DNA of 64,000 nucleotides, taken from positions 992,001-1,056,000 of the forward strand of contig CM102283.1 of assembly GCA_046563655.1 (NCBI GenBank), given 5' to 3'. Positions 4,413 to 44,509 of the stretch are shown piece by piece; position 1 is the first letter of the stretch, and the number at the start of each line of letters is the position of its first letter. The position numbers and the translations under genes are program-made. The DNA comes from Yuukianura sp. NJ FZ-2021. Taxonomy: Eukaryota. The notes beneath the pieces were generated by a model that had not been told where the DNA came from, made no database searches, and worked only from the letters and a program-made list of their open reading frames with translations.

Positions 4413-6828
4413 TTACTCCTCTTCCTCCTCCTCCTCTTCTTCTTCCTCTTCCTCTTCCTCCTCCTCCGCCTCTGGTTCAGGCTCCTCTGCCTCTGCTTCG
4501 AAGTTTGGTTCGTCCAGGACGTCAGGAATACCAGAGTCCTGCAATTTCAAAAAAATTCAAAATTTTGATTTTCTAAAAAAAATTCAAAATTTTGATTTTT
4601 TTTTAAAAAAAAATATATATTTTGGAAATTGCCGAATTTACCTTCACTTCCTCCTCCTCTGGAGTCTCGGGTTCACCCTTCTTCTTTCCAGGACGCTCAC
4701 CAAACCATTTGGAGAGTTTGGCTGAATAAAAAGGTCACACAGTTTCAAAATTTTATGAAATTTTATAAAAATGACCGAAAACTAAAATTTTCGAACGTGT
4801 TTTGATATTAGAACTTTACTTTTCTGGCGGTTGTCAAATGCCTTAATGGTTTCAGACCAGGTTTTCTCTGTGTACTCCTTGTTCAGAGCATCAAATCCCT
4901 AGTCAAAATTGAAAATTATAAATGAATCAAAAAAAGCTTTGAAGAAAGTTTTTCTTAAATTTTCAAATTTTAGAAATTTACGCCCTCGAACAACGTCTTC
5001 TTGTCTCCGTAAGTTCGGGTGTCAACTCTGCGTTCGTATTTTGAAGCGACTTGCATTTTGGGCTAAAAATAATTTTTTTTAAATATAAAAACTTTAGAAA
5101 ATCTGCGTGCCAAAAAATTTTTTTGATCGCAATATTTCGTTTGTCTTACTGGATATTTTCCGGTGAGAGCCCTGCGTTAAAACAACAAACATTGGGGCTT
5201 AATTTTTCAAAAATTTGAAAAAATTTGCGTAAGTAACTAAATCTTCCATTTTTTTTTTAAATTTTGACTCACTCTGGATCCAATCCTCGCTTCTTTGCTT
5301 TGGACCTCAACTGCATTTTTTGTCGTTCCTTCAACTCAATCAACTGCAACAAAAGTTACATTATTCGAAAAAAATCATAACAAAAGTGTTATTAAATAAT
5401 AATTAATATAATAGAAAATGACTCACGTCGTAGTCCTGTCGTTTCTGTCGCTCTTCCAGATCATACTTTTCCGTTTCCAGTCGTACGATCATTTCCCAGA
5501 GTTCGTGTGCCTTGCGCTTGAGCACTTCCACCGACAAACCAGTGACATCTAGCGGCTTGATTCTCACACTCAGCGAAATTCGCTTCTCCTCTTCCAGCTG
5601 CTCCTTGGTCTTGTTGAACTCTTGGCGGTTCGACCCCATGCCCGCGGCCTATTCCCATGTAAAAATTTCGTTTTTCAAAATTTCAATTTTATGAAAATTC
5701 AATTTCTTGTACCTGTCCGCCCTCCCCACTGTGCGATTGAAGCTTGAGCTTCCCAGCCAGCGTAGCCTTCTGCGCTTGGAGCATGAGCTGACGACGGCGT
5801 TCAGCTTCCTCGAGTCTGCGCATCTTCTCTTCCTGCTCCTTCTGCTTCTTCTCTTCAACTTCGCGCTGACGACGCTCTTCTTCTTTACGCTTCTTCTCCG
5901 CCAATCGACGCTCTTCCTCCTCGCGAAGTGTCTGTGTTAAAAAGGTAATACACATTAGGTTAATTCAGACTAACTCACTTTTGTCAACTTTTAACTTAAC
6001 ACTCTTAGTGAAAAAACTAGCCATCAATTTTTTTCTTGTTTTGCAAAGAAATTGCTTAAGTCACCTTTCGCTTTCCTTGCTTCTCCTTGAGTTTCTTGAG
6101 TTCCTCCTCTTCCTTGGCTCGCTGACGACGCCATTCTACAATGTACTCCTACCAAAAGATAAACATTGTTAAATTTTTCCGCTCTATTTTTCAGTTTTGA
6201 AATTGCGATAGTTTGGTTTTAGTAAATAAAACTTTTCATGTTAACATCAATCAACAAAAGTACCTTGAGTTGTTCGTCCAAGTCAGTACGCTTCTCAGCT
6301 TGTCTCTATTTAGCACATGAGTAAGCAGTATTTAAAAACTTTTCACTAAATTTAAAAAAAAATGTAATTTCGAAATTTGACTTTAAAAAAACTCACCTGG
6401 AGAAACTCAACTTCTCCTCCTTTGGGCGCTTCCCTTTGAATGTGAAGGAGAAGATTGATTAAGTTTAAAAGTTAATTTAAAGTAAACCAAAAACTAAAAC
6501 AATAACGTAAACCTTTTTTAAAATTTTGGTTTTAAAAAATGTAGGAAGTAGAATGAAATCTGAGAAGGGAGAAAACGTTGTGGCTGGTTAGCCGTGGACT
6601 TACTTCCTGCAAAGGAAACAGAACAGATCAGGTTGGATTTTTGCCAAAATCTATTTTTAGAAACAAATTCCACTGTTTCAGCATGCACTTACACTTCCTC
6701 GACCTCCTCCACTTCTTCTTCCCTACAAACACAATTTTTTTGAAAAAAGTTAAGGCTCAATCCAATTTAAAAATTTCGAAATTTCAGAAAAGTGGATAAT
6801 CTTACGAATAGACTTCGTCGTCTGACAT
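4413..6828 (-). CDS. TnT: Troponin T, multi-exon, with C-terminal poly-Glu tail
   Basis: ATG at 6828 (MSDDEVYS). Exons encode KTKEQLEEEKRISLSVRIKPL...KAHELW...LETEKYDLEERQKRQDYD and ALTGKYP/KMQVASKYERRVDTRTYGDKK, typical of arthropod TnT. Poly-E tail ends at TAA 4413-4415. Confidence 0.96.
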
Positions 6829-7358: not shown

Positions 7359-8090
7359 TTAGGCTATGACACAGCTAGATTTAAGTTTTTCCGCTGCTTT
7401 TGCTTTTTCTTCTTCAGCTTTTGCCCGAGCTTCCTCTTCAGCCGCTTGTTTTGCAGCGTCTGCAGCGGCATCTGCAACTGCCGCTGCTACTGTAGCGATT
7501 GCCGCTGTTCCCGCGACTCCCCCAGCTGCCGCGCCCAATAGCAGCGCTGCTTTTTCAACCTGAGATTTTCGAAAAGATTTTAAATAAGAAATTGAGAACT
7601 TCAAAATGAAAAGTGGGTGCAACAGTTTAAAAATTGTACAAACCTGTTCGCTTTTTGAAACTCCATATTTCCATTTCATACACAAATGCTCGCAGTTGTT
7701 TGAAAGTAAGTTGTACTCCAATTGTTGCGCAGGATAGATCCACTTCCGAGCCTCTTCAATGATAAGCTCTGCTGACCTCGTGGGGTCAAATCCTTCTAGC
7801 GACTTCAACTCGTCAATTCTCGCAGTCTTATTGTTAATACGACATTTGCCGCCTTGGGCGACATCGACAAGCAGCTCTTCTTCGACCTTGCCTACTCCAT
7901 CACCCAGATTCATTAAGTGAATGACACTGTCGAACCCTACGTACATTCCCCAGTGAATGCACGTTTCACGCTTGAACTCTATGAGGTCAGTGACCTCTGC
8001 CAAGGTCAACACTTCCTCCGCAGTGGTGTAAGGGCCTACTCCTTTGTCGTGCGTACTACATTGAATCATCCTGCGAAGTAACTTCGACAT
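7359..8090 (-). CDS. LRAT/PLAAT (HRASLS-like) NlpC/P60 phospholipase-acyltransferase
   Basis: HWGMYVG, VIHL and YNLLSNNCEH catalytic motifs. One in-frame intron at about 7560-7643. Ala-rich helix, then C-terminal CVIA*. Confidence 0.85.
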   Translation of the reverse strand: MSKLLRRMIQCSTHDKGVGPYTTAEEVLTLAEVTDLIEFKRETCIHWGMYVGFDSVIHLMNLGDGVGKVEEELLVDVAQGGKCRINNKTARIDELKSLEGFDPTRSAELIIEEARKWIYPAQQLEYNLLSNNCEHLCMKWKYGVSKSEQVCTIFKLLHPLFILKFSISYLKSFRKSQVEKAALLLGAAAGGVAGTAAIATVAAAVADAAADAAKQAAEEEARAKAEEEKAKAAEKLKSSCVIA

Positions 8091-10439
8091 TTCAAAAAAA
8101 AAATGGTCTAAAAACTTTTTTTTTAACTTTTTAATATGCTTGAAAGCTAATTTAAAAAAAAATTCGTTGCGTAGAAGCGTTCTTTTTTGAAAGTTTTTTT
8201 CGGCAACGGTAGTTTTGTACTAGTGCGGCTACTAGTTTGTTCGTCGGCTACTTCTTATTAAAGTAAAATCAGCGGAAATGGAATTTGTCGGTAAAATTTG
8301 GAAATTGTTTGCCGGAAGAAGATCACTCAATAGTCATTACACATACACTGCCAATACATTTGAGCTTTTTAGATTAAAAATGTAAAAAAAGCGTTGATTG
8401 GGACACCTCCCGTTTAATTGAAAACCGACTGATTACGTTGTTGATTTACGTCAAACTTTGAGATTATGCTAATTAAAATGAAAAAAGAATGATTCAAAAC
8501 TTGTCGTTTGACACCTTCCGCTCAAAACAAAAAGAAGCATGTATACTTTTTTTTGAGAATTTCCATAATTGGAGACAATTTTGTTTTGTTGACTTTTTTT
8601 GACTTTTGTTGTTGACTGCTTTCGTAGTTTTAGTTCGTTTTTGTTGAGTCACAATTTTTTGTGTTTCAAGTAGAAAGTTTTCCAAATGTGTGACAATTTT
8701 GAGACAAATTTTGAAGTGGAAATTGAGTTGAAGAGCATGCAGCCAAAGTGTCTGTCAGTTGGCAAAGTCATTTCAGACGCTTTGACTCCATGCTCTCGTT
8801 TCATCTCTGGTATTGCGTGTATGTCTGTCCACTTTCTTTTGCAAGATCCTCTGCCAATTTGTTCTTATAAAGACGCTACCTCACTTCACCACCTGAGTCT
8901 CACATTCTATTTTGCACACAACCAAAACACAACTAACTTTTAAAAAAGTTCTCAATTTATTTTCAAATTACAAACAAGTAGAATTAAGAAAAATAAAAAG
9001 AAATCCTTATTACAAATTAAGAAAAGTGCCAAGTTTTCTACCAAAGTTGTTTTTTTTAATGCCGGATTTTGAAGTTGCTGTTTGGTCAGCAAACTTCGAG
9101 TGGCATTCTCAAAATTTTGAAAGTAATTTTTGAAATCCCGGTTTTCAAAATTTCGGAAACCTCTTAAAACCGGCTATGGCTGTTGTTCCATCTCCGCTTG
9201 ATCCTCACATGATAGTTCCGGTACGTACAGTTCCTTTTTACTTTGAATTTTTTAATGCTTATTAGAATGTTATTTTTAAATTTTAATTCCAATTTATACC
9301 TGCAAAGAATCAAAGAATTAAAAGAAGCAAAGCTGAAATTCATTTCAGTACATGCGTTTATTTTTCGAAAAGTTTGTTTAAACAATTTTATTTGGTAGAT
9401 TTTCAGCATTGTACTCCTTGGTCTTATTCACTGCGGCGATCCATGTCACAAAAAAGTTGGTAAGGCACTTGCACAACCTAATTGATTTCTATCTTAACCT
9501 AGTCTTCTTTTTCGGTCGTGCTCAAGTTGTTTTCTGCTCTAAATTGTTCTAATGCACTTTTAAAGTCAGAATTCCTCTAAAAACAAAAATTTAAAACAAT
9601 TTGTATTAAGCGTCAGGAAAACAGTACACCCAAAAATCGTCAATTTGTTTAATTTCACATCTGTGAAGAGAAAATGAGTGAAATAACGTGATTTGCAAGA
9701 ATTCCATCATAATAACAAAGTCATGAGTTAACTAACGTTTTAAATTTCAAGTTAGCTTTTCCCGCATGTTTCTACTCGTCACTATGAACAAGAAATATGC
9801 GTGTATACTCTTTTCATTGGTGCTCAGTTGAAACAAATCTTTAAAAAAGTACTAGCGTTGCTACAGATTAAGTGCGTGTTTAATTGTAAACGATGGAGGG
9901 TGAGTTATGGTTCAATTAGAAATTGCTACTCACGGTTTAAGTTTTTACAAATTGAGGTTCCCAGTGGTTGCTCAAGCGTGAGCTGCTTATCTTTGGTTAA
10001 GGAAAGCGTGTGGAATTGATGAGAAGAAGCCTTTTTCAAAAGTCACTTTGTCAAACAACTTTAAATTATAAACTTTTCAAAAATTGAAAGAAACAACATG
10101 CAACTTTTGTCAGAATTTGGAGCACGGGAACCATACCATTTGGCACCAAATTCTGTCTGCCATTCTGTTCTTTCCGCCTTTTGACTTTTTCTGATTCTTT
10201 TTGGTAAACAAATGAGAAGTTTACGCTCTAATTGACTCTCCGTTTCTTCCAGAAGTTCACCACGTCTACGTTCCGTCCAAAGGTAAAACACTATGTTAAT
10301 TTGAAATTAATTAGATTCATATAATTAATAGTTGTGTATAAATAACGGTAAAAAGTTAATTATTAAGTTTTAAGTAAGGTTTTGAGAATTTAAGTTAGTA
10401 GAATTCTGATTTCCAAAAACTTGAGAAAAACTTGTGTAA

Positions 10440-11573
10440 ATGATGTCAGGATATGGCGGGTATGGGGCACAGGACTATGGACACAGTCCTGGATATGGAC
10501 ATGGTGGCTACGGTCATGGACATGGACATGGACATGGACATGGTGGCTACGGTCACGGTGGTGGTGGCTACGGCCATGGCGGAGGTGGCTACGGTGGAGG
10601 TCACAAGAAGGGCCACAAAAGCTTACTATCCAAACTGAAATATAAGCACAAAGGGAAAAAAGGCGGAAGGGGTACAATTTTCACTCATAAACGCGTCAAA
10701 AACTGCGTCAAGCAAAAAATTCACGTTGCACGCCAAACATCACCCAAAATGTTTTCTATCTAGCTGTTCTCCTTTTCCAAAATTTAATGATTGATTATTT
10801 TTTGGACACTCTGTTTAGGACATGTAAGCTATCCGCAGTACCATCACAAATATGTTCACAGTCACTACCATGGCGGCGGTCACGGACACGGGGGTGGATA
10901 CGGGCATGGAGGAGGTCATGGACACGGCGGCGGATATGGCCATGGGGGAGGTCATGGACATGGGCATGGAGGTGGCCACGGACACGGAGGCGGACATGGG
11001 CACGGCGGAGGTCTTGGTCATGGCCACGGCGGAGGTCATGGACATGGCCACGGCGGAGGTCATGGACATGGCCACGGTCACGGACATTCTAGTGGATACA
11101 GTCATACAGAACCAGGTCACGGGCATGGTTTGTCACAACAAAAACTTCAAAATTATTCCCCTTTTCAGTTTTTTTTTTGAATTTCGACTGTATAAAATGT
11201 ATTTCCTTTAGCTCACGGAGGTCACGGGGGTCACAGCGGGAAAGGTGAAACTTGAATTACAAAATTGGATGATCTTTCTTAAAAACTATCTGTTTTTGTA
11301 GCCTACGGATACAGCGAACCTTACCCAAATACGGAGTACACCAACAAGATCGAAGTCGTAGAGGAGCCACCCGTACCACTGCCGGAGTCGTCAGATGGCG
11401 CTACGGTTCCGAAGTTTCCGAAAAAGCGGCGCGTAAAACCAAAACTGGAATTTGAAGTGTCACAAAACCATTCTTTTCCAGAACTTTTGCAACAATCGTT
11501 TAAACAAGCAAACTCTGATTTTAGCAGGGACGAAAATCTTCCACCACAAAGAAACAGCAGCTACGATTATTAA
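10440..11573 (+). CDS. Glycine/histidine-rich low-complexity protein, about 4 exons
   Basis: GGHGHG/GGYGHG repeats in exons at about 10440-10670 and 10819-11127, short exon at about 11211-11244, last exon 11302-11573 ending SSYDY*. Confidence 0.75.
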
Positions 11574-12957: not shown

Positions 12958-13641
12958 CTCCGTTTTCAGCAAAATCTACAAGCTGAAGGTATGAGTTGGT
13001 TGCATCACATTCGGCGCGACTTTTTAAACCTGTTTGAACAATGGCATTGTTGGTATACGAAAAGTGAAAATTTCATGTAATTTGACATTTGACCTTACAA
13101 TTTAGGGCAAAGTATCTAACAAAGTAATTGGAGTTTTTTATTTTCCGTTTATTTGTATGTAAACATCACTCATCATAAATTACAGCCAAACACTATGATT
13201 TGTCATTTCCGTCAAAAATTGAATCGAATCGCAAAAACTTCGTTTTGTAACATGCTAGACTCATTCTTACAAAAATAAAAAACAGATACTTGATTGAGGT
13301 CGCTCGGTTTCACAATTTCTTTGAAATCCGAAATCCAAAATTATGTCTTGCGTGACATAGGCAGTTAATTTTTTTTTAACTTCTATGAACAACAATTTGC
13401 CCTATTATTCTATTTACCTTGCAATTTGCCATGTTTAGAAAAAATCCAATAAGATAATTCAAATAAGTAAGAATAAAATTTCTCCGGAGCTTTACAACAC
13501 ACGTTTAGTCATCAATCAATGTCATACTTACATCAATGTGATCACATCAATTGGTCGTGTGTGATGATTACAATTTATTTCGTTACAAAAAACGCTTCGT
13601 GGTTGGCCAAATACGATTGGGTGCCTATTTTTAAAACAATT

Positions 13642-14419
13642 TTAAAGTTCTCTTATCATACAAGCTACAAATTGATCAGTTGCTGTTGGGAAACGTTTGT
13701 TTCCTTGTTCGTCCAGTGCTTCTGCGTAGTACGCTCGATCGATCTCTCTAAATCCGTTCTTGATTGCTGCCAAACGAGTGTATGGACTTGAAAAGTAGCT
13801 TTCAACCAATCGGAATCCACGACTCTTAATCAATTTTATACTTCTAGAGTACATCTCTGACACAAGTCCCCTCCGTCGAAACTCTGGGTCAACTGAGGTC
13901 ATGAGTAAATCTGCATACGACTCGACTCCAAATTCTTCCAGAACGTCATGTCTTCCTCCAAAACATTTGAGAAATCCCAGAACGTTTTTGTGCGAATCTA
14001 GCGTCACGGGAGCATCCGGTCGAGTGGAATCCTTGTCACGTTTTACCGTTATGCGCACGCCTGCCACCTATTTGAATGACGAAGCACAAAAAGTTGAAAT
14101 GGGGTCACATAACAATTATTGAATTTACGCAGTGTCATGCGTTCTTCCGCTTTTAAATGGCGCTTTTTTTAATTTTGAAACCAACCTTGCCAGACTCTTT
14201 GTGAATGGCCATAAAGCTGAGTCGGTCGTTTTGGCGGATGTAGCAATCTACGACTTGGTTGACCTCGTCTCCAAGGTCATCTGTGTACCCTGCGAGGCTA
14301 AACATAGTTTCGTCGGGGTAAAAACACCGTTTGAGATGATCCTGCACTCTGGGAATGTCTTCGAATTCAATCATCTTGAATTCAAAATCTCCCCAACTTC
14401 CCTCCACTATTTCACTCAT
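13642..14419 (-). CDS. Arylalkylamine N-acetyltransferase-like GNAT, copy 1 (2 exons)
   Basis: MSEIVEG...HLKRCFYPDE...SVDPEFRRRGL (acetyl-CoA motif)...SSPYT. Intron at about 14068-14185. Confidence 0.85.
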
Positions 14420-15099
14420 GATGAAACACACTCAACTATTTAGTGACAATCTAACTTTAGTTGATAACAATTAAAAATTCTCAATCCAACTTGTCAAGCG
14501 TTGGAAACTTACATTAGTACAGAATTTTGTGTATCCTTGTGTCTACTAAGGATCTGTTACAACTGAATTGTAAATTGTTAGGCGCATATTGCATGAAGAT
14601 GAAGAATATCTTTTTAGTGGTGTGTAACACATCAATCATGGTTAACTCGTCTACACTAGCTGTCTGTGTGTAAAGAATCAAGGTCATTGGTCCATCTTAG
14701 TAAGACGGTCTTACCACAATCCTATAGCAGCACACGACTCTTTTGTCAATGGAACGAAATATTAAAAAAAAACAGGATTTTAACAGTGTTGTTGTAAGTA
14801 CTATCAATCAACTCCTCGAGTAAACATATAGGAACGTGTTCATGGGAGCACGCCATTGTTTCGAATGAAATGTTTCAAATTTGACATTAGAATCTCGAGT
14901 CTTAAAAGTAACAACGAAATTATATGTTGTACGAAGTTAGATAAATCCTGTTGAATAATTAAAACTTTCTTTTATTTAACGAAAAAACCAAGAGAAAATT
15001 TACTTTTACATTTCTTACGGTACAAGCCAATCGGTAATTTATTGAAAGTTTTTCGAACGGTATTTTTGGTATTAGATATTCTGCAAGTTGCAAATAAAG

Positions 15100-15650
15100 C
15101 TGTCCCTCTTAAGATACGGCTCTCCAATGTAGGCTCTTAATTTAACCTGGAAATAAATTTTAAGTTATTTCACTCGTCAATTAAAGTTATAATAAATGTT
15201 CTTAATTTACATATCCGTTGCTCTGTTCTGCTTGAAAATTGACACAAAATCTTGAAGTCTTTGTCTTTTTTTTCCTGTCATCGTCAACACAAGTATAAGT
15301 AATAACTGAAGAAGCAGGAAAAGCTTTGTTCTTCTTGTCCATGAATTCAAAGTTCACTTGAGCTGTTCCGGTTTTAATGGGGTCAAAATCGTTTGTATAA
15401 GAATAAACAAATACAAAACAGTATTGGGATTTAGTTCCGTCCATGATGATCTTCGAAGGAGTCATTGTGAAAGTTGCCTTGTTACATTGGAATTTTGCTG
15501 AAAGATAAATTTTTTTTTCAAAAACATACAACAAGACAAACTTAGAAACGTTAAGTACAGACAAGAATCTTGGCTGGCCTTTGGCCAGCCAAAGATTCTT
15601 GACTGTTGCGTACGTACCAGTTTGACGGATTAATTTAAAAAAAACCATAT
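15100..15650 (-). CDS. Uncharacterised small protein, structure uncertain
   Basis: 148-aa ORF with plausible splice sites and a further exon near 15148; no recognisable family. Confidence 0.35.
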
Positions 15651-16540
15651 CCCAATCGTTAAATTAACAAAAAGATCGACCAACCAAAATTGGGTACAAT
15701 TGGTTAGTGTTTAGTTTACTTCAACCCTTGTGTTATATAAAAGGAGTAAATTGTCATGCGCACAGAGGGTGGATAGAAATCCGAGGAATCCGATATCCGA
15801 CTTTTAGCCAGACCCTGAGAAAGAGGACAGGAACACACGCAGACGGGTCTCTCCTTTTAAGAGTATGATGTGCGTGCACCCGTGCACCCCTCATACAAAT
15901 GCGAGGAGTCAGACAAATCCGACCTTTAGCCAGCCCCGGACAAACATCTCTCCTTATTACTTAGATTGGGTGATACATGCCAAAAATATTTACTAAAAAC
16001 CCGCGAAATATTTACATATTAAATATTTTTCATCAAAAATCTCAAAATATTTACTTAATCAACATGAAGGGCATGGGAAAATCAATAAATATTTAGTAAT
16101 AAAAAAGCCCAAAATATTGATTTTGTTAACATTACAGGCATGGGGACTAAATATTTTTAGCATGTCTAGATAATGAACTAAGGATTGGTACACCAATTCA
16201 CATTTGTTTGCAAATGAAAAACCGCTGTACAGTCAAGCGTAGATGGCAAAATTTATTTAAATTGTAACTAAACCAGCACAAGAGATAGAAGCTCAAACTG
16301 TGTATTGCTCAAAAAACTTTTTTTTTCAAATTATTGCGGCCATACTTCGTTGGTTATTGAAAATAAATATTTTATAATTTTCCAATTTGAACGTCAATCC
16401 TGTATTCTAAAAAAAATTATAATCTTGTAACTTAATTGTTCTAAAAATTTAATAATTTAACTTATATTTTTTTAAATTAAAAATATTATCAATTTTTTTT
16501 TAAATTTCTATCTTAACCTTTTGTGGCCATTTCCTGTTTT

Positions 16541-17080
16541 AGTCTTCTGGAGAAGCATGTCTATGACATGCTGAAGAAGACTATTGATACGACTTTGTCC
16601 GTCACGTTTTTTAGGACCCTCTCCACTGAAATACAAGCCCCATCGCAGTCGTGTACAAAAACGCCCCTATGTCCGCACTGAAAGTTTTGAGCGACACTTC
16701 TGGTTCAAGGTTCGTAAACAAACAAATCTACCCAGGTTGTCTAATAACTCGACGTTTTTAATTTTCTCAAATAATTTGCAAAACTTGCGTCGCCCTGCCT
16801 TTCCATGGTAATGATTTAGATGTAATTTAATAGGAATTGGGGGGAAATTGGGGGGGGGGGGGAAGGGGGAAATTGTTTGCAGGAAGATTTCTGCAAACCC
16901 CGAGTTACTACACAACCTGTTGTAAGCGAATACAGTTTGTTACTATAGCAACCTTGCTTCTAGTTAATGACTCGTGAAAATGATTTTGTTTTGTTCAAGG
17001 GCTTGGCGACTGACTGATGCAAGTCATATCAATTGTCAACTCTCTCCAGAAGACTCAACCCTTGAGCATCGCCCTACCTC
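16541..17080 (+). mobile_element. Non-autonomous Helentron/HINE-like element, copy A
   Basis: 5' subterminal IR AGTCTTCTGGAG...GAAGAAGACT, 3' CTCCAGAAGACT plus a degenerate stem-loop, T-rich flanks. Ends are shared with copies B and C. Confidence 0.65.
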
Positions 17081-18529
17081 TTTTTGATCGGCTAATACGC
17101 GCTTTATGTTCACTTTAAGACTTTAATTCCTAGTTTTTATTAGAAAACTCGATTCATGCTAGATTAGTTCTTACCAACATCAGCAGGTGGAGCTGGAGCT
17201 GCTCTAGTACAAGAGCCCTGTTCCAAGCAGTCTTGGCCAGAAGATTGGTGTGTTTTTAAGCCCAATACGAGGATGATACTCATTGAAATTAAGTACGTTG
17301 GCTTAAGCATTTTTCAAGAAAGAAAGTTAGATAATATTTTTCTACTTATTTTGTATTCTTTAAAATGTACATTGATTTTGTTCAACGACGCTTGTCTGAA
17401 TTAAAGTTTTCTGTGGTGGATAAATAGCCTACACAATTCTCTGAACCTTGTAAGAATCTAGATTACTTTAACCATGTCACGTCAAAAGAATCATGTTAAG
17501 GTTCCGTCAAAAAGAAATTGAATTGATTCAAATCTGGATTCTGGAAGGTTTTTATACTGCCCTAGATTTGTCGGTGTATTAGTTTAACTAAAACAAAAGG
17601 TAAACTTGTGGTTTAAAATGAACGTTTGGACGACTTGTGTAATGCTTATAAAATGTCCAAATTCAGACGTTGTTTATTTGATTTCTTTTTTATTTTACAG
17701 GTTTTAGGGTTTTAATAATTTGTGACATCTACGATAGACTTCTGTCAGGAATTCATTTGACTCGGCTTCTCCATAGTTGATTTCACTTAAATTTAAATAA
17801 GTAATATTAAAAGATACACTATATTTTGAAATTAATAAATTTCAATTCAAAGGTTATGTTGGAGCCAATAATTTAACTGTGGTCGCTATGCACTTCGTTT
17901 CTGTACATATTTAATTTTCAGTTTTCGCTTCAACAAAGTATGGCACAGATAACAAGTGACTCAATTAGACATCTCCGTTCAACTGGTCGTAGGTCATGTG
18001 GTCACTCTTCATTCGTATAAAACCTTTCCATTTTTATTTTCACAAGGACTGCCTAAGAAATCATCCGTCAGAACGAATGTCCAATTTAATCGAATCAACC
18101 TTATTTCCAGCACCTCTCCTTTTGTCAATCAGTTAAAATCACAAATTCTACAACCTTATTCCAAGCATTTGTGTTTTTAAGTAACACAAGGTGGAATACA
18201 AGGTTGAAAATTTATTGAGGACAGCAAAGTTAAATTACGTGTTTTCTTTGAAGGAGAAAATTATTTGAAATAATTCACATCGTCAAAACGCCACGAAACA
18301 CACGTCATCTGAAACCTAAAAACCCAGTTTAAGGATTTAATTAATTCCTAACTAAGGATTATGGTCTTATAAGTATACAGAACATTTCCTAAAAAAATCA
18401 GTACTACGAAAAATTCCAAACTAGTTTTTCCATACTAATGTTTTCCTAAAAAATTTAAAACCCTGCTGGCATTAAATTTTAAATATTAAATTGAAATAAT
18501 CCCTGTTAGCTTAGGTTAAGGCAACTGAA

Positions 18530-21500
18530 ATGAAATCAGCATTAGTTCTGATTTTTCTGTTGGGTCCTTATTTCCTTTTATTTTTCAACGCATATGTATA
18601 CGCTCAAGGTGGAGGTAATCGTGATGCTATTAAATAATGCTATAAATTCATTTTTTTTTACATATTTGTGATAATCTAGAAATCCAGAACTGTGTTTGAC
18701 TCATTTTAGATAAAGGTCCAGGCCATGCGTTGCTTCCAACTAGTAAACCAAATCTACCTGGAGGTAATGGAATTATAGGTGATTCCTTACCTGGCACATT
18801 CTTTGCAGACTTCAAACCACCTTATCCTACAAACAGATGTAAGCCAGCATTAAACAAGGTAGCGCGATGCTCAAGGGTTGAGCATAGGTCTTCTGGAGGT
18901 AGTTGACAATTAATATAACTTGTATCAGTCGCAAAGCCGTTGAAACGATTAAAAACCATTTTCACGAGATTCATGCAACGAAATGTCGCTCATAATGTTC
19001 AGTGCGGAACGGGGGCTTCTTGTGCACGAATTGCGCCAAGATGGTAAAGAACCGTTTGAAAACGTTTTTAACGCAAATATGTTGAAAAAACCCTTGCATC
19101 AAAATGTTGTTCAAATTGAGCTCTGAACAGTTTTCATCCGCTTCAAAATTACAGTGATGAACAACAAATTATTGTTCTCAAGTTTGTACAAATTTTGAAA
19201 TAACAACGTCCATTAACCCCAAGGTTCCTTGACAAGTAGATGCAAATAAACGTCGAATTATTACTCAGTTATTTTGACGCTGGGTAATGCAAGGTTCCTT
19301 GACAACGAAAAGGTGTTTGTTTTGTTTGTTTTCCGTTAACGGAAAATAAACAAAACAAACAACCTTGCATTACCCAGCGTCAAAATAACTGAGTAATTCG
19401 ACGTTTATTTGCATCTACTTGTATACGTGCACAAAATTGAACGTTGAAAGGTGTAAAATATGATTTACTTTAAAATCAAAATCGGTTCAAATAAATGCAC
19501 CAGGTGATAAATTAAGTGCATAAGCACAAATGTTGAAATAACAACGTCAACTACCGAGCGTCAACATAACTGCACTATTTGTGTTACGTTTGCAACAGCT
19601 TGGAAGTGTGCATCATGCACAAAATTGAACGCAGTGGGGGAGGGATCAAATATCGCTTGCTTAAAATCAAAATTATAAAAATTTCTAGTGAATGCAAATT
19701 TGAAACCTGTAAGCACTATTCACATATTAAACATTTAAGCCGGATTTTCTACCCTCTAATCAGTTTTAATTTAACAACGTAACTAAACATACTACCGGAA
19801 AATCATCATATGAAAACTCCGTTGTTTAAAAATAGTATTTTGAGTATAATGCAGACCTAGCACAAAAGTTTTGAGGACTTGAGAAACAGTAGCGCGAAGC
19901 AGCCGCAAACTTTGGCGCTGTTAATGTAAGACTTTAACAGTGCAATGTAGACCTAATGAAAACACTTGAGCCATGCATAACACCCCGTCTGCGATGGGGC
20001 GTATGTTTCAGTGGAAACGGTCCTAAAATACAGGACAGACGGACAGACAGACAGAAAAGTCGTATCAATAGTCTTCTTCAGCATGTCGTAGACATGCGTC
20101 TCCAGAAGATTAAAAGTAGCATAAAAATACAAAAATCTATTTTCAAAAGTATAATTTTTAGGGTGGCAAGGATTGACATTGAAGAAACAAGAAAAGTAAA
20201 AATAAATTATAAATTGAATTTAAAAAAATATTTCATAGAGATACTTAATAATAAATTATATTGTATTTAGTACTCTTGCTGGTCCTTTTCCATATCAATC
20301 GAGGACCAGAGACACTGGATTTGAATTTGGGATTGGAACTAACCGGAAGTTTGAAAGTAAAACTTCACTAGTAGTTCCAGAACAGTTGGACCTTCGTGTG
20401 ACCATTGATGGTCTTGAAGTCAAAGTGACCAACCGCAAAGCTTTGACATGGGACACCCAAACTGTAAGTTTAAGATACATGGGTCCAGATGGAGCTACGA
20501 TGGATACAACCCTCACACATGGATCTCCTTACATGACTTTTAAGTTTAACAAAGCCAAGGTGGTTATAAAAGCCATCAATAATGGATACAATGCAGTGGT
20601 GCAAAACTTTACTTGGCTACAGAAAGGTAATCTATAAGAGGGAAATTCTTTTGTAATAGAAGCAGAGGTGGTAAGCCTGAAGTAAACCTGTGCAGGCTGC
20701 ATCCGTGCGAAATAGCTAAAGCTGCAGGCCGCAGGCGTACCGCCTGCCGTTTTTGGACTGGCTTGCAGGCTTCAGGCGTGCGGACTTGGGCGGCAGCAAT
20801 GCAGACCAGAACAAATGTTGCTGGCTGACACCTCTGAAGATTCGAAGAAAATTATATTTTGCTTATTTTCTGTTTTCTAGGAAAGCTTGGAACATTGGTT
20901 AGTGGAAACACAAACGTGGAGCATAGACTGTACGTAGTTGAGGGCACAGTTAATGACTTCGTCATAAGCAAAGATAATATAACATCAACACAGCCAACTA
21001 CAGCCACGATTCGAATAGCAAGAGTTCTCCAATCAAAAGACAAATCTCTCTTGGATGCGCATGCGCGAACATATCCCACTGGTCTGACAATGAGATACAG
21101 CGTAACAGGAAACGAGAGCACACAGACATGGACATGGGATGTGGTAGGGGATCCAAAGAATTTGCTTGTAATGAGTTGGCCACATCATCGGTATGTAAAA
21201 TAATTTTAGATACAATTTTAGAATAAGGTACATGAAGAAATTTTTTTCGTGGGATTTCAGGAGAGTCTTGCAGAAACCGATCTATAAAGACATTGTCTAC
21301 TCGACGATAAAAGGTGAAATGCGTGGAGTAGCTGGAAACGTTTGGGTTCAAAAACACCGTCTTACAACAACTACTTGGTATCCCGCCTTCAAACCACAGG
21401 CATCATGCCTTCCGGAGCTCATAAAGCTACTGGAGTATGAAGTCAACCATCTTTACGTGAACCCACCAGGCGAATTGTATCATTGGGGAGGAAATTTTGC

Positions 21501-23462
21501 CGCAAGAGCTCAATTGGCGCTAATTGCCGAAAAGTTGGATCGAATGGACCTTGTCGCCAAAGTACTGGATGTGATAAAGCAAAGTGTGGAATACTTCCAT
21601 GTTGATACGTATAGGATACGTGTTGCATATGAAACGGGCTGGGGCGGATTTGTTAGTCCATATGGCTGCAACAACGTAAGGAATTTTTTCCCTCAGAATA
21701 TTGCGTTGTTAATTATTTTCATTCTAGATGCATTACAATGACCACCATCTTATCTTTGGCTACTTGCTTTATGGCATTTCTGTGATTGCTAAATTCGATC
21801 CCGAGTGGTTTAAGACTCACAACGAGGTGGCAACTAAGTAAGCTAATAATCTTACATTTGTTTGCACAATTCTTTTCAATTTAATTTAAATTAATAATAA
21901 TAATTAAAATTTAATTCTGCTTTTTTAGCATTGCTCGAGACATCGGAAATCCATCGCCGGCGGATCCTTACTACCCGTCGGCCCGTCACATGGATTTCTT
22001 CCATGGCCACTCTTGGGCAAGTGGAATTGGTCAAAGTGGGGGTCCCAGGAACCAGGAAAGTGTTAGTGAAGCAATCAATGGATACTACGCACTACAATTG
22101 TATGGAATCATTAGTAACAACCCTGAGTTCACGGATTGGGCTCGTATGCTTCTTGCAATGGAAATTGCAGGAGCACAAGAATACTGGCACTTGTATCCGA
22201 AAAGAAAAGGGAATTTGACACCATACCCTGAACAAGATGTTCGAGATTTGACGACATTTGCAAACATATTCGCTGGAAAAGCAGGATCATTTCCTCTTTT
22301 TGGAAGTCCTCAAAACAAAATTCAAGTGATTTCCATTGTCACCCTTCCAGTGACTCCAATGGGCGAAAATTTATATGATAAAGAATGGATGGAGGGAGTT
22401 TTGCCTTACGTTCTACCATATATAAAAGCGTTGCCCGATGGAGATGACTTCTATTGTGGTAAGTGTAAAACTTTTACTGTCGTATATCCCAAGAGGCTAA
22501 ACTTTCTAAAAAAAAATCCAGTTATATACGACGCTTACGCAAGCGTGAATCCACGAGAGGCGTACAAGTATTCTCTTTTGGTTGCTGATTGGGGTGGTGG
22601 CCACACAGCGACAAATCAGCTGTATTTCATTTCGACACAACCGAGTGCTGAACAAATCTGTACGGGAGATATGACGAATTCACCGGTGGGCTTCTTTTAC
22701 ATTCAAGATGTTGCTACTGGAAGATACGTCACCGGTTTATCTGTTTTGCTGGCAAAATTTAAAATTGTAGAACTGGGTTCAAAATTTGAACTGAATTTTA
22801 AGCCTGGTGGCGGAAGTATCAAATCCCTTCAAAATGGCCAATACGTCAATGCAGGCTCAAGTAAATCTAGCTTAAATGCAAACAAGGATATTGCTAGTAC
22901 ACAAGAAACGTTTCGTTGGATTGATAACAAAGATGGAACATATGCACTTATGGCAATGTATACAAAAACTACTGTTCAAACCCAACCTACTGGACAGCTT
23001 GTCAACAATGGCCAACTTTCAAAGTATAAATTAATACCAACAGATGACGCACCACAGGCGCCTGAACCAGACGTTCCAGCTTCTGGGAAACTTCTCAACG
23101 TGGGGTCAAACAAATACGTGACCGTTCTAAGTACCACTAAGGAACTGATGGCCAACGAAAACGCTGCAGGACAGGCAACAACTTTTAAATTTGAAAACAT
23201 TGTGGGCAACAACCCGTTCCAGTACTACGCTATCAGGAATGAAGCAACTTCTCTGGTTGTTACTGCAAATCCAACTCCCGTGAACTTGAAAGCTTCGAAT
23301 AAAAATGCACTTGGCTACGAGTATTTTCGTTTTGTGGAATATAAAACGGCCTTCATTATCATCCATGTGGCTAGTGGTAATGCAGTTAAAGCAGACGGAA
23401 ATACAACCCTTCGCAATGATGATGTTGACATCGGTAACAATGCTTTGTGGAAAATTGTTTAA
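18530..23462 (+). CDS. Secreted GH81 endo-1,3-beta-glucanase with C-terminal fascin-like beta-trefoil repeats, about 9 exons
   Basis: Signal peptide MKSALVLIFLLG...; GH81 motifs PYPTNRWW, GSPYMT, YNDHH..FGY, FFHGHSWASG, RNQESVSEA. Introns at about 18615-18709, 18839-20161, 20196-20270, 20627-20880, 21191-21260, 21676-21728, 21837-21928 and 22459-22521. Confidence 0.9.
18852..20112 (-). mobile_element. Helentron/HINE-like element, copy B, inside GH81 intron 2
   Basis: Reverse-complement of the copy A ends, (CTGT)n-like microsatellite at about 20030-20053, perfect 3' hairpin ATGCTCAA-GGG-TTGAGCAT at 18867-18885. Confidence 0.7.
19232..19422. repeat. Near-perfect palindrome of about 190 bp
   Basis: ACAAGTAGATGCAAATAAACGTCGAATTA... 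is mirrored by ...TAATTCGACGTTTATTTGCATCTACTTGT; centre TTCCGTTAACGGAA. Confidence 0.9.
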
Positions 23463-24188
23463 ACATAATCGACTGGGAAAACTTCCTGGATTTTAGAGAT
23501 TTAGACTAAATTTAGAAATTCAATTTTAAGCGTTTGGAAATAAAGATTTGGTTCATAATTGGAAATAAAGATTGACAATTGAGATTTAAAAAGGATCCGG
23601 ATTTTGTATTTTATCAGTTAGTTTGACTAAAGCAATATGTTGTGAATTCCAAAAAATGTTTGACTAGGTGGTTTAAGTCTGTTCTAAAGTATAATTCGAT
23701 TAAAAGTTCGTAAACAATACACACGAGCGAATACATTTAATACATTTTTAAAGAATGGATTCGTACATATTTTTACAAAAGAAAATATAAATACAAATAC
23801 AAAAAAAAAGCACACAGAATAAAATGTTTGTAGGATGTAGCTAAAATATACGTTACCACAGTAGCTAATCTATAGTAGTTAGAATGCCCGATTTTGTTTT
23901 TGTTTAATAAAGATGTGTTTGTCGAATTGCCTAGTTTTCAATTCTACTTTTCAACAATTCACATCCATAAATAAAAGTGAGAAAAAACAACGAAAAAAAA
24001 GAACGAAAAAAAAAATCAAAGAACAAAAAAAAAAACCGCAGTCGTGTTTTTGATTTTCTGCAAATCTTTACTTGCTAAAATTTTCGTCCCGCTGGCACCG
24101 TTTACTCGACAAGAAATAAAGTGGAATCGGCGGTCAATGTGCTGAACTAGCAATACTGTCGCTTTTAATTTTAATTTTTAAAATGATG

Positions 24189-24966
24189 TTAAAGTTCTCT
24201 TATCATACAAGCTACAAATTGATCAGTTGCTGTTGGAAAACGTTTGTTACCTTGTTCGTGCAGTGCTTCTGCGTAGTACGCTCGATCGATCTCTCTAAAT
24301 CCGTTCTTGATTGCCGCCAGACGAGTATATGGACTTGAAAAATAACTTTCAACCAATCGGAATCCACGACTCTTAATCAATGTTATACTTCTAGAGTACA
24401 TCTCTGACGCAAGTCCCCTTCGTCGAAACTCTGGATCAACTGAGGTCATGAGCAAATCTGCATACGACTCGACTCCAAATTCTTCCAGAACGTCATGTCT
24501 TCCTCCAAAACATTTGAGAAATCCCAGAACGTTTTTGTGCGAATCGAGTGTCACGGGAGCATCCGGTCGACTGGAATCCTTGTCACGTTTTACCGTTATA
24601 CGCACGCCTGCCACCTATTTGAATGACGAAGCACAAAAATTTTAAATGGGGTCACATGACAATTGAATTTACGCAGTGTCATTCACTCTTCTGGTTTTAA
24701 ATGGCGCTTCTTTTTTTAATTTTGAAACCAACCTTGCCAGACTCTATGTGAATGGCCATGAAGCTGAGCCGGTCGTTGTGGCGGATGTAGCAATCCACGA
24801 CTTGGTTGACCTCGTTTCCAAGGTCATCTGTGTACCCTGCGAGGCTGAACGTGGTTTCGTCGGGGTAAAAGCACCGTTTCAGATGATCCTGCACTCTGGG
24901 AATGTCTTCGAATTCTATCATTTTGAATTCAAAATCTCCCCAAGTTCCCTCCACAATTTCACTCAT
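24189..24966 (-). CDS. Arylalkylamine N-acetyltransferase-like GNAT, copy 2 (2 exons)
   Basis: Near-identical to 13642-14419, same intron position, intact ORF. Confidence 0.85.
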
Positions 24967-25695
24967 GGTGAAACACGCGCCACTATTTAGTGACAATCTA
25001 ACTTTCTTTGATAACAATTAAAATTTCTTAATTATACTTGCCTAGCGTTGGAAACTTAAACTTTACTACAAAAATTTTTCTATGCTTGTGCTAGTAGACC
25101 CTCCGTCTACTAAGGATCTGTTTCAACTGAATTGTAAATTGTTAGACGCATATTGCATGAAGATGAAGAATATTTTTTTAGTGGTGTGTAACACATCAAT
25201 CATGGTTAACTTGTCTACAAAAGCTGTGTAAAGAATCAAGGTCATAGGCCCGTCTTACCATAATCCTATAGCACACAACGGTTTTGTCAATGGAACGAAA
25301 TACTAAAAAACAGGATTTTAGCAGTGTTGTTATAAGTATCAACTCCTCGAGTAAACATCTAGCAACTTGTTTATGACTCACATTCATAACTTAACATATC
25401 TTGTCAAAGGTCAAGGCAAGTTGGCTATTTCATGAATGAAAGCAACCGACAAAAAATTGGACGCGAAAATCGTAGCTGATCATTGCGATGATTCCGAGGA
25501 AGAGTCAGACCACGCAGAATGCTCTGCTGAGTCTCCTTGCCGACATCTGGGAGATATTTGGTTTTGTTTGAGACATCTTTTTTGAGGGTTTGTTTTGCTT
25601 TCATAAAATTAAAGTAAATCGTTTGACGGTAGTTAATCTTGTCAAAGTAGAGACAAAGTGTGAATTCAGTTTCTATAATATTACCAATCACCAGC

Positions 25696-35570: not shown

Positions 35571-36500
35571 ATGTCGCCACTGCATAACATTTCCGAAGAC
35601 TTCTAAAGAAGTCGCCTAAGGAACAAGAAGAGTCACTTACGCTGAAATTTGACTTGGTAACCTATCAACTGCACAACTCCGATGCTGAAGCGTCTGAGAT
35701 CTCACTGACTGGAGCCTTGGAATTCAGGGTCAATGGCGGAACATTGAATAGAGGAACTGATGAAGTGAAAGTCGTTGGATCATTTCCACTGTTTCTTCAA
35801 CCGGGTCAAATGAAACCACAAGACATGGATCCCTTGGCTCGCGGGCATGCGCAGGAGAAACTCAATCACTGGCTCAGCGAATCGGGAGTATCCGAAGGAT
35901 CCCGAATCTGGAACAAGACGCAGAATGCTCAAATTCCACTCAAAACGGCGTTTCTCTTGCCTGGGATCAAATTGGTGCAAGGAAAAGAGCTGCTCTTGAT
36001 ACATCTTTTGCAACTTGTTCTTGGTAAGATCAAGATAATTAGTTTAATTTAATTAAAGTAGCTAATTAAAACCGCTACGACATTAAAATTTTATTTTTGT
36101 ATAACAATAGAGGACGCTTTTGAGCAGTACAGAGCAGTCGGCGTTGACTTTGATGAATTTATGGATATCAGCAACACCATCGTTTCCAATTGTCTTGGAG
36201 AAAACTACGACCAAGATTTTGGCGCCAAAACGACATTTCCACACTTCGCCATTGTCAGTTCGTTGAGTCAAAAGTTGCGCGGGATAAGTTAGGCGCGATC
36301 CGCCCTTCGAACTTGTTAATCGGCAACTAGTGAAGATTTTTGTTACAGTCGAAGCAGTTTTGTCACTGCGCAGGGCTATTGAAGTCAACGTCGTGGACAA
36401 CTGCGTGCTCACCTCACCATTCAACTCACCTGATCATAAAATTTGAGGGGAAAAAGTGACTTGAAGGATTTCAAAAATTTTGTTTCAATGGAAAAGCGTT
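35571..36500 (+). pseudogene. Decayed paralogue of the 43174-44509 gene
   Basis: Alignable to 43174-44415. TAA at codon 12 after a deletion, a further stop, and large internal deletions in exon 2. Confidence 0.8.
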
Positions 36501-42800: not shown

Positions 42801-43173
42801 ATTGCTTCGCTATTATCATTATGGGCGGTACAACCGGTATATTTAGGATTGCAGTGGCCGGAAGTATATTTTACAACAAACTCAGTTTTGCAATAAAAAC
42901 ATACAACAAATTTCTGGTCTTTTCGCCTTTATTCAGAAGTTAGTGAAAGCCAAACCAAGGCTATGGGTTAAGTGTATTGTTTTTTGTAATGCTGGATAAC
43001 AATGATTTTAACGACATTTTGTTTATTTTTAGGCGAAGGAAAGCTACTAACCCAGTTTCAAAACTTCCGCGGTGTTATGCCGCTCCATATAATACTGGAG
43101 TACAACAGTCACTGCAAACTTTTGCTTTTTGGTTCACTGGCCTTTCTTTAAAAAAAACAGCATTCGATTCAAA

Positions 43174-44509
43174 ATGGCGCCACTTCCAAACGTTTTCGAA
43201 GACTTGAGACCCTTACGACTGAAAAAGTCGTCTACGGAACAAGAAGAGTCACCGACGCTGAAATTTGACTTAGTGACTTATCAACTGCGCAACTCTGATT
43301 CCGAAGTTTCTGAGCTTTCAGTGACAAGCGCCATGGAATTCTGTTTCAACGGCGGAACAGTGAGTAGAGGAACTGATGAAGCGACTATTGTCGGATCATT
43401 TCCACTGTTTCTTCAACCGGGTCAGATGAAGGCACAGGACATGGATTGCTTGGCCCATGCGCGTTCCGAGGAGGAACTCGATCATTGGCTCAACAAATCG
43501 GGAGTAGCCGAAGGATCCCGAATCTGGAACAAGGCCCACAATGCTCAAATTCCACTCAAAACGGCGTTTCTACTGCCAGGAATGAACTTGGAAGATGGAA
43601 AGGAGCTGCTCGTGATACATCTTTTACAACTTGTTCTTGGTAAGATCTGAATAATTAATTATAGTACATTATAATAAATTGAAACTAATCAAAATTACAG
43701 CTAATACATTAAAATTTTGGGAAACAACAGAGGACGCTTTTGAGCAGTACAAAGCAGGCGGCGTTAACTTTGATGAATTTATGGATGTAAGCAATACGAT
43801 CGTTTCGATTTGCCTGGGGGAAAACTACGACCAAGACTTTGGCGCCAAAACGACATTTCCCAACTTCGCCGTTGTAAATATGTTGTGTCAAAAGTTACGC
43901 GGGATGTTTGAAATTCGTGGACTGGAAGCCGCGAAGTACGTTATCTTCGATTTCATTGAATTCATCGAAACAAGCTTCTGGGAATTGGATGAATGGTGGG
44001 CCGACTGTCCATCGTACAAGGCTCGTCCTAAGACGTTCTACTTTATGCGCAAAGAAAAGACGCATGGACTCAAAACTGTGATTGAACTTGTGTGTTTTCT
44101 AGAAGGAGTGACCATTCTACCCAAAGTCAGGCGAGATCCGCTTTTCGAACTTATGAAACGACTGTTGACCAAGGTTGTTGTCTCAGTCGAAGCAGTTTTG
44201 TCTCTGCGCAAGGCTATTGAAGACAACGTCACGGACAACTGTGTATTGCTACGCACACGGAAAAAGACGTTGCACGAAGCTCTTAAACGCACTCTTGTCC
44301 AAATTCGTGAAACGATTCAAGATTTTGCTGCTTTCGAAACCCAGCTGAACATAAAATTTGAAGGAACGAAGTGCCTGGAAGGGTTTCAAAAATTTTGTTT
44401 CATTGGAAAGGCGCTGGTTGATGCTCAAATTCAGTATTTACTGGTATCAAAAATTCATGGAGATTTTGATGTTGTGGTTGAGCTAAATTTGGAAAAACTC
44501 GACGGCTAA
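43174..44509 (+). CDS. Uncharacterised protein of about 425 aa, 2 coding exons
   Basis: MAPLPNVFEDL...; intron at about 43640-43700 joins the two long ORFs in frame; no family recognised. Confidence 0.75.

Follow-up and report, generated by a model that had tools for sequence, protein, structure and literature searches.

A predicted GH81 beta-1,3-glucanase of likely fungal origin, with altered groove motifs and two beta-trefoils, in the springtail Yuukianura sp. NJ FZ-2021

Gene structure and copies in the genome

The 64,000-nucleotide stretch analyzed here (positions 992,001 to 1,056,000, forward strand, of contig CM102283.1 in assembly GCA_046563655.1 of Yuukianura sp. NJ FZ-2021), which we call the window, carries an intact GH81 gene at 18530..23462 on the + strand. 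The gene runs from an ATG at 18530 to a TAA ending at 23462, and its nine-exon model holds 969 codons without an internal stop, encoding a 969-amino-acid protein in which the GH81 region is followed by two beta-trefoils. All eight introns are GT-AG, range from 52 to 1323 nucleotides (nt) and have phases 1, 1, 2, 1, 2, 0, 2 and 1. The assembly spans 98.7 Mb in 22 contigs, with the window on contig C1, and exon 8 matches four places in it: the window itself, a copy on contig C3 (15.3 Mb; 98%) and a tandem pair on contig C7 (10.2 Mb; 53-54%), named C7a and C7b. The four copies, on three contigs, are all intact, with open frames and eight introns each; all eight phases are the same, and in the alignment the intron positions coincide for seven of the eight, the first being off by at most one column.

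Exon 1 (18530..18614) encodes a probable signal peptide (about residues 1-25), as judged from hydropathy and a V-x-A pattern: a charged start is followed by a hydrophobic stretch (Kyte-Doolittle 2.1-2.4 in the first nine windows) and by V-x-A at 23-25. Exon 2 (18710..18838) holds the Pro/Gly-rich N-terminus of the GH81 N-terminal region, recognized by tblastn against the paralogues and the Orchesella and Allacma proteins, and exon 3 (20162..20195) is a 34-nt micro-exon that keeps the frame and has 37-nt counterparts in both C7 copies. Intron 2 between them (18839..20161; 1323 nt, and 548 nt in the C3 copy) is packed with high-copy repeats, among which self-BLAST shows an inverted one at 19232-19422, and its depth in one sequencing run (X1) is 20,000-65,000 compared with about 250 in the exons. 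The GH81 N-terminal beta domain is encoded by exon 4 (20271..20626), and the N-terminal domain is also matched in exon 5 (20881..21190; PF03639, E 9.5e-11). We consider the donor of intron 4 at 20627 correct because the distant C7 paralogues have an intron at the same codon and phase; an in-frame stop at 20635 falls within this intron, as does a 2-nt difference from the C3 copy at about 20634, which does not break the gene. A later donor at 20671 was rejected, as it causes a frameshift with 35 stops and is not common to the paralogues.

The (alpha/alpha)6 barrel starts in exon 6 (21261..21675), which ends where orthologues have a DFG loop that is absent here. Exon 7 (21728..21837; PF17652, E 2.4e-8) carries the YNDHH motif, with D448 at 21740-21742 and with Ile452 in place of the His of HHFH. 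Exon 8 (21929..22458; PF17652, E 1.6e-26; E 1.4e-13 against PDB 4K35) carries HSWASG and NQESVSE, with E523 at 22056-22058 and E527 at 22068-22070, and its most altered stretch is residues 591-617. Intron 8 (22459..22521) is 63 nt long, in frame and stop-free, and is hidden within a 515-amino-acid open reading frame (ORF), its position being common to the paralogues; exon 9 (22522..23462) matches a ricin-type trefoil (PF14200, E 2.6e-7). In a Pfam scan of the gene in eight pieces, three pieces had no relevant family, and the GH81 domains PF03639 and PF17652 exceeded the curated cut-off of 25.6 bits with 41.9, 93.9 and 34.1 bits.

Purifying selection acts on the GH81 copies. The ratio of nonsynonymous to synonymous substitutions (dN/dS) is 0.35 between the window and C3 copies (dS 0.047; Fisher p 5.5e-5), 0.29 between C7a and C7b, and 0.24-0.25 between the window and the C7 copies, where dS is near saturation. 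In sequencing run X5, one contig match ends at 21189, and a contig (record 23) aligns to 21414-21675 and 21929-22457 with 110 letters between, exactly the length of exon 7, so that introns 6 and 7 are spliced in some transcript. This run, labelled "DNA?" and recognized through its spliced contig, shares its sample with the best DNA-matching run; no RNA run was among the matches listed for the GH81 stretch.

We conclude that this is a real host gene and not contamination, because there are four copies on three contigs, eight shared introns and animal genes around the window copy. The neighbors include a troponin family gene (about 5424-5624), a DRY_EERY/CLASRP gene (from 26049), two GNAT (aaNAT-like) copies, Suv3, LDH and other ordinary genes. 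Most of the Atlas clusters nearest to the GNAT ORFs at 13645-14067 and 24192-24614 come from arthropods or nematodes; none of 25 candidates passed in a homologue search with the GNAT neighbor, and the neighbors are thus not tied to springtails by name. An earlier note on this stretch, made from the letters alone, described the gene itself well: its exact bounds and unbroken frame, the signal peptide, the YNDHH and NQESxSE motifs, about eight introns, animal-type neighbors and the improbability of contamination all agree with our results, but it overlooked the pair of trefoils at the C-terminus, the other three copies and the altered motifs around YNDHH.

Catalytic residues, substrate groove and trefoils

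The three catalytic positions of GH81 are present in the window protein, D448 in YNDHH and E523 and E527 in NQESVSE. The two Glu are invariant in 85/85 clade rows; the first aligns with the residue mutated in PDB 6FOP (E515A) and corresponds to the Glu of barley GBP1 whose exchange (E500A) is reported to abolish activity (bioRxiv 10.1101/2023.04.12.536646). The sole activity that PMC9609564 gives for GH81 is endo-beta-1,3-glucanase. The GH81 fold, with beta-sandwich domains and the (alpha/alpha)6 barrel, was seen in a model of the Orchesella orthologue. That model has the same fold (Foldseek E 8.5e-32) as the solved enzymes RmLam81A (4K35, 5XBZ), CtLam81A (6FOP) and BhGH81 (5T4G), which share the catalytic D/E/E motifs but belong to other subfamilies, with 18-23% identity and no fascin-like trefoils; BhGH81 carries CBM6 and CBM56 (PMC9609564, PMC7915573).

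Taken together, we think it reasonably likely that the window gene, acquired by transfer from a fungus, encodes a beta-1,3-glucanase that is secreted, has an altered groove and serves to digest fungal food. By analogy with the family, the protein would be secreted and kept on insoluble glucan by its trefoils, and D448 and E523/E527 of the barrel would cleave beta-1,3 bonds inside the chain with inversion. Beta-glucan from the walls of eaten fungi is its probable substrate; enzyme activity and expression in the gut are predictions, and the digestion of fungal glucan for feeding or defense that the earlier note proposed is plausible.

To gauge how far the copies have diverged, we used the 197 alignment columns that show 90% conservation or more among 85 clade proteins. 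Of these columns, 45 are changed in the window protein, 44 in C3, 38 in C7a and 36 in C7b, compared with 3-9 in Orchesella, Allacma, Umbelopsis and two further sister proteins and 22 in Gongronella. About 22 columns are changed alike in the window, C7a and C7b, and many lie near YNDHH, HSWASG-QES and the GNV..W.FWG loop. Around residues 591-617, a run of 15 conserved columns has 11 changed (permutation p 0.002), and the changes are clustered in the window (p 0.002), C7a (p 0.023) and C7b (p 0.013), the corresponding values in five other divergent rows being 0.04-0.33. The place of the altered motifs beside the catalytic residues suggests that they line the groove, and chain-length or branch preference probably differs from that of the orthologues. 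A micro-exon that might supply the missing DFG loop was considered and rejected: in two copies intron 6 measures 52 nt and has no room for one, and the 110 letters that the spliced contig leaves are just those of exon 7.

Several of these changes weigh against a typical beta-1,3-glucanase. The 45 changed columns of the window protein exceed those of every one of the 85 reference rows; it lacks the DFG loop before YNDHH and carries H452I, G591A, W604F and Q617V; the His of HHFH, kept in 82/85 rows, is Ile or Leu in this genome's copies; and W588, W591 and Q602 of the model are among the changed positions. The foremost alternative, which we regard as unlikely, keeps the fungal origin and the catalytic acids and supposes that the groove was reshaped either to accept a different glucan (mixed-linkage, branched or rich in beta-1,6 bonds, or short oligomers) or to bind tightly and cut slowly. 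Such a change of job would fit the excess of changes in all four copies over Orchesella, Allacma, Umbelopsis and the sisters, their clustering near active-site motifs and the continuing purifying selection. However, the changes are not enriched in loops over helices (18/70 vs 15/62, p 1.0), only 8 of 67 family-wide conserved columns are affected, Gongronella and Bifiguratus also vary at HHFH, and BhGH81 is active though it lacks the DFG loop in the alignment. The Orchesella model does not help this alternative either, as its predicted local distance difference test (pLDDT) score is below 50 in exactly these loops, making it of no use for sugar contacts, and in the literature searched we found no text giving GH81 subsite residues. 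The conserved groove motifs are common in GH81 and not diagnostic, so their alteration makes the window protein a less typical member and leaves its GH81 status unaffected. In the GH81 proteins of Gongronella and Bifiguratus, the HHFH His is lost and the loop before YND is altered, so this change has also arisen in fungi.

The last 267 residues model as two beta-trefoils (pLDDT 92.6), both fascin/CBM92-like and encoded on the + strand at 22686..23042 and 23067..23459. A fold search matched the second trefoil to 7ZOH (Z 17.7, root-mean-square deviation 1.8, 119 residues aligned), tied with fascin, lectins and other trefoils, and by sequence CBM92 is the best match of the tail (7ZOH, E 0.0063, at the first trefoil), with a profile E of 2e-7 that is level with fascin. 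According to PMC11039641, WExF motifs give CBM92 its binding to beta-glucans, Trp is missing from some sites of certain members, and a termite is the only animal with CBM92. CpCBM92A/B (PDB 7ZOI, 7ZOH; PMC11039641) share with the window protein the fascin-like beta-trefoil and the ExF motif, but they have three motifs per trefoil, with W, whereas the window protein has a single xExF motif per trefoil, QETF and YEYF, with Q784 at the aromatic place of the first, Y922 at the Trp place of the second and no Trp in either. With CBM92 defined by WExF in three subdomains, the trefoils are CBM92-like and not members, and their glucan binding is putative. Along with the groove, these altered sites open the doubtful possibility of a small post-transfer family with a rebuilt groove and a specificity unreported for GH81 (e.g., branched or beta-1,6-rich glucan, or binding with little cutting), which would have spread partly via circular DNA.

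A function in defense seems improbable to us. An ordinary beta-1,3-glucanase could be secreted to haemolymph, cuticle or egg coat, where it would damage fungal pathogens or free glucan fragments for immune sensing; the signal peptide is compatible with any tissue, and plant GH81 proteins are described as working at the fungal interface and releasing elicitors (bioRxiv 10.1101/2023.04.12.536646). What the sources list for animals argues instead for feeding: mollusc GH81, present in four of the seven mollusc columns of a published table, is given as hepatopancreas-expressed (PMC7560691), the enchytraeid GH81 is listed with digestive enzymes in a source that records GH81 in Enchytraeus and earthworms (PMC11083476), and fungi are named as a major springtail food (PMC13084967).

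Origin of the gene

Returning to a glucanase for fungal food, the likely source of its gene is a fungus on the side of the Mucoromycota. The exon 8 search found 31 relatives among 540 candidates, with Orchesella, Allacma, Gongronella, Umbelopsis, agaricomycetes and Planoprotostelium at 42-56% identity; the best values were 56% for Gongronella, 54% for Orchesella, 50-52% for Umbelopsis and 51% for Allacma, and the crinoid Antedon reached 31%. A profile built from 15 relatives gave 140 matches among 8000 scored, and among the 120 matches listed the close group comprised Mucoromycota, Basidiomycota, Ascomycota and one amoeba, the only named animals being three springtail rows. A bacterial donor was rejected, as the best prokaryotic loci (80 kept of 255) showed 27-34% identity. 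No match was found in a phage search, and no animal cluster in an Atlas search with the Antedon protein. Among amoebae, Planoprotostelium fungivorum has four subfamily members and Physarum one, which branch outside the fungal ones.

A first tree (162 of 191 proteins, 29 having been dropped for short coverage) and a careful tree of 46 hand-picked rows both unite the four copies of this genome (100/100) and agree on their wider placement. In the careful tree, springtails group with Mucoromycota (100/100), namely Umbelopsis (nana, isabellina and others), Gongronella butleri (KAI8075031.1) and Bifiguratus adelaidae; Dikarya (100/97) are sister to this clade, and these fungi and the springtails hold together (100/100) with amoebozoans outside. 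In the approximately unbiased (AU) test, holding 20 fungi monophyletic without springtails was rejected (p-AU 1.7e-10), and a second AU set (30 of the 46 rows, simpler model, fast search) rejected a grouping of springtails with Antedon (p-AU 1.9e-5). Umbelopsis, Orchesella, Allacma and the window gene have in common a layout of 950-980 amino acids with GH81 and two trefoils; Gongronella differs in having 694 amino acids and no trefoils, and Mucoromycota show 43% identity to the window protein. We found no characterized Mucoromycota member of this GH81 subfamily in the literature searched.

The transfer of GH81 to springtails is not new. The paper on the Orchesella cincta genome counts 253 genes as transferred, 30.4% of them fungal and a beta-glucanase among them (PMC4987106); Ocin01_05085 appears in its Table S7 of horizontally transferred genes, where the best match given is a Schizophyllum GH81, and in its Table S5 two such genes carry an actin cross-linking (fascin-like) domain, while the O. 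cincta GH81 rows in these tables name neither a Mucoromycota donor nor an assay. Ocin01_05085 and Ocin01_19372 (apparently ODN01575.1 and ODM87310.1), O. dallaii CAL8124059.1 and Allacma fusca CAG7831711.1 belong to the same subfamily as the window protein and share the layout of GH81 with fascin-like trefoils, at 44-46% full-protein identity; they differ from it in a canonical groove (6-8/197 columns changed vs 45) and in the WExF Trp of the second trefoil where present. The fungal GH45 cellulases of springtails (PMC13084967) and the transferred genes of O. cincta (PMC4987106) are likewise secreted, domesticated cell-wall enzymes from soil fungi, of different families and for different substrates. 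Our search, largely outside subscription papers, found no study devoted to springtail GH81, and the Mucoromycota-side donor, the remodeling of 45/197 columns and the circularly permuted copy were not found in the literature searched.

Domesticated horizontal transfer, as the earlier note had proposed, is the most likely explanation given the position in the tree and the rejection of fungal monophyly. A springtail ancestor would have taken the gene from a Mucoromycota-side soil fungus with two glucan-binding-type trefoils already attached, probably once and before the Orchesella/Allacma split, and later duplications would have raised its number to four in this genome. Folsomia candida had no named match in the exon 8 search or among the 120 listed profile matches, and none of three supplement files (PMC5490193) contained GH81 terms, which is a hint of loss in that species. 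The earlier note's premise that GH81 is not of animals did not hold: GH81 is reported from molluscs, annelids and the copepod Eurytemora, in the last as a bacterial transfer (PMC12198962), and a crinoid GH81 turned up in our searches (Antedon XP_071940914.1). These animal genes are genome-encoded and thought digestive; they do not refute the transfer, because Antedon (31% identity), the one such protein included in the tree, is not the springtails' sister. The rejected grouping of springtails with Antedon also speaks against broad inheritance across Metazoa, which the earlier note had named as what would refute transfer.

Some results count against this account of the origin. With the 30-row set, the test of Mucoromycota monophyly is weak (p-AU 0.017, but Shimodaira-Hasegawa p 0.51), and a grouping of this genome's copies with Gongronella is not rejected (p-AU 0.21). 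Springtail monophyly, with Orchesella, Allacma and two further proteins, reaches only 77/97; the fungal part of the tree departs from the species tree inside Dikarya and the gene is scattered in its occurrence, so the donor may be a lineage outside the sampling. Antedon, the one non-springtail animal GH81 in the tree, has a very long branch (3.0), and the AU hypotheses were chosen after the first tree had been inspected. The unsettled relations of Gongronella, Umbelopsis and the springtails leave some room for the idea that no fungus-to-animal transfer occurred, i.e., that an old opisthokont gene was kept only in springtails or that a springtail or unsampled protist passed it into Mucoromycota; that amoebozoan proteins branch outside the fungal ones, that the subfamily is patchy in fungi and that other animals do carry GH81 would all agree with it. 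Even so, we judge it very improbable, as vertical descent needs fungi to be monophyletic without springtails, which was rejected, and needs loss in all other sampled animals, given that the named animals among the 120 matches listed are three springtail rows; moreover, the full-length identity of 55-60% between Orchesella and Gongronella or Umbelopsis is high for an animal-fungus split.

The least probable alternative, which we give almost no weight, is that the window copy is decaying or that the locus is an assembly artefact or contaminant: the window copy is the longest branch of its clade and has lost the aromatic of its first WExF-type site, and the reads did not join GH81 to its neighbors, but the open frame, consensus splice sites and the dN/dS since the split from C3 speak against decay, and the host-type introns, the four copies on three contigs and the presence of gene pieces in run X3 from another study (7 of 1094 letters different) speak against an artefact or contaminant. 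On the cautionary side, the spliced contig fits either the window copy (2 and 5 differences) or the C3 copy (4 and 6), and no listed contig bridges the GH81 coding sequence to a neighboring gene, so that the linkage rests on the assembly.

The permuted copy, neighboring features and biological meaning

Comparison of window 14880-25358 with C3:2266550-2275410 revealed that the C3 copy is a circular permutation of the window unit opened at 17786: exact junction mapping places its beginning at 17787 and its end at 17785 (permutation point 17785..17787). The order on C3 is 17787 through the gene to 23684, a short GNAT-repeat piece, an 80% CLASRP remnant, and then 14880-17785. As the start and end of the C3 copy meet within one base, we infer a circular intermediate; there was no evident target-site duplication at the C3 insertion. 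In the window, the GH81 gene sits between GNAT (aaNAT-like) direct repeats 10.5 kb apart, the left one at 13627..14844 (- strand; 1.2 kb; Pfam PF00583) and the right one at 24174..25375 (- strand; 89% identical to the left), which could have closed the circle. The 80% CLASRP fragment in the C3 copy suggests an older duplicated unit of GNAT and CLASRP.

C3 is the derived copy because it interrupts an array of repeated ORFs of about 470-500 codons; on both sides of the insert, alternating single-exon ORFs have 467-506 codons (L010 1233-5173, L011 3610-7656), and by eye they have an F-box-like start. The last exon of the C3 copy ends 11 residues later than that of the window. We rejected C3 as an uncollapsed allele, as its neighbors differ and its order is permuted. 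A short ORF at window 15205-15663 (- strand), with no Pfam match, moved with GH81 to C3 at 96.6% identity. On C7, an array of single-exon ORFs of up to 734 codons lies beside the GH81 pair (L015 1-9998, L012 2-1450), and these resemble divergent ionotropic receptors by eye.

Elsewhere in the window, an LRAT-domain protein with an Ala/Glu-rich tail is encoded at 7362-8219 (- strand; Pfam E 5.3e-18), a His/Gly-repeat, secreted-type, cuticle-like protein at 10791-11180 (+ strand), and two related copies of a gene without an assigned family at 35588-36052 and 43093-44509 (+ strand). Genome markers comprised two marginal 7tm_6 and three odorant-binding-protein matches, which are weak and fit a non-insect hexapod.

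The value added by this work is modest and concrete, namely a donor group and an architecture transferred whole. The C3 copy is a clean case of gene duplication via a circle, and the canonical Orchesella and Umbelopsis enzymes, set against four remodeled copies, form a natural series for testing the groove loops of GH81. Springtails are major soil fungus-eaters, and with a host-encoded GH81 they would be able to break into fungal walls independently of gut microbes, by means of an enzyme that came from their own food.

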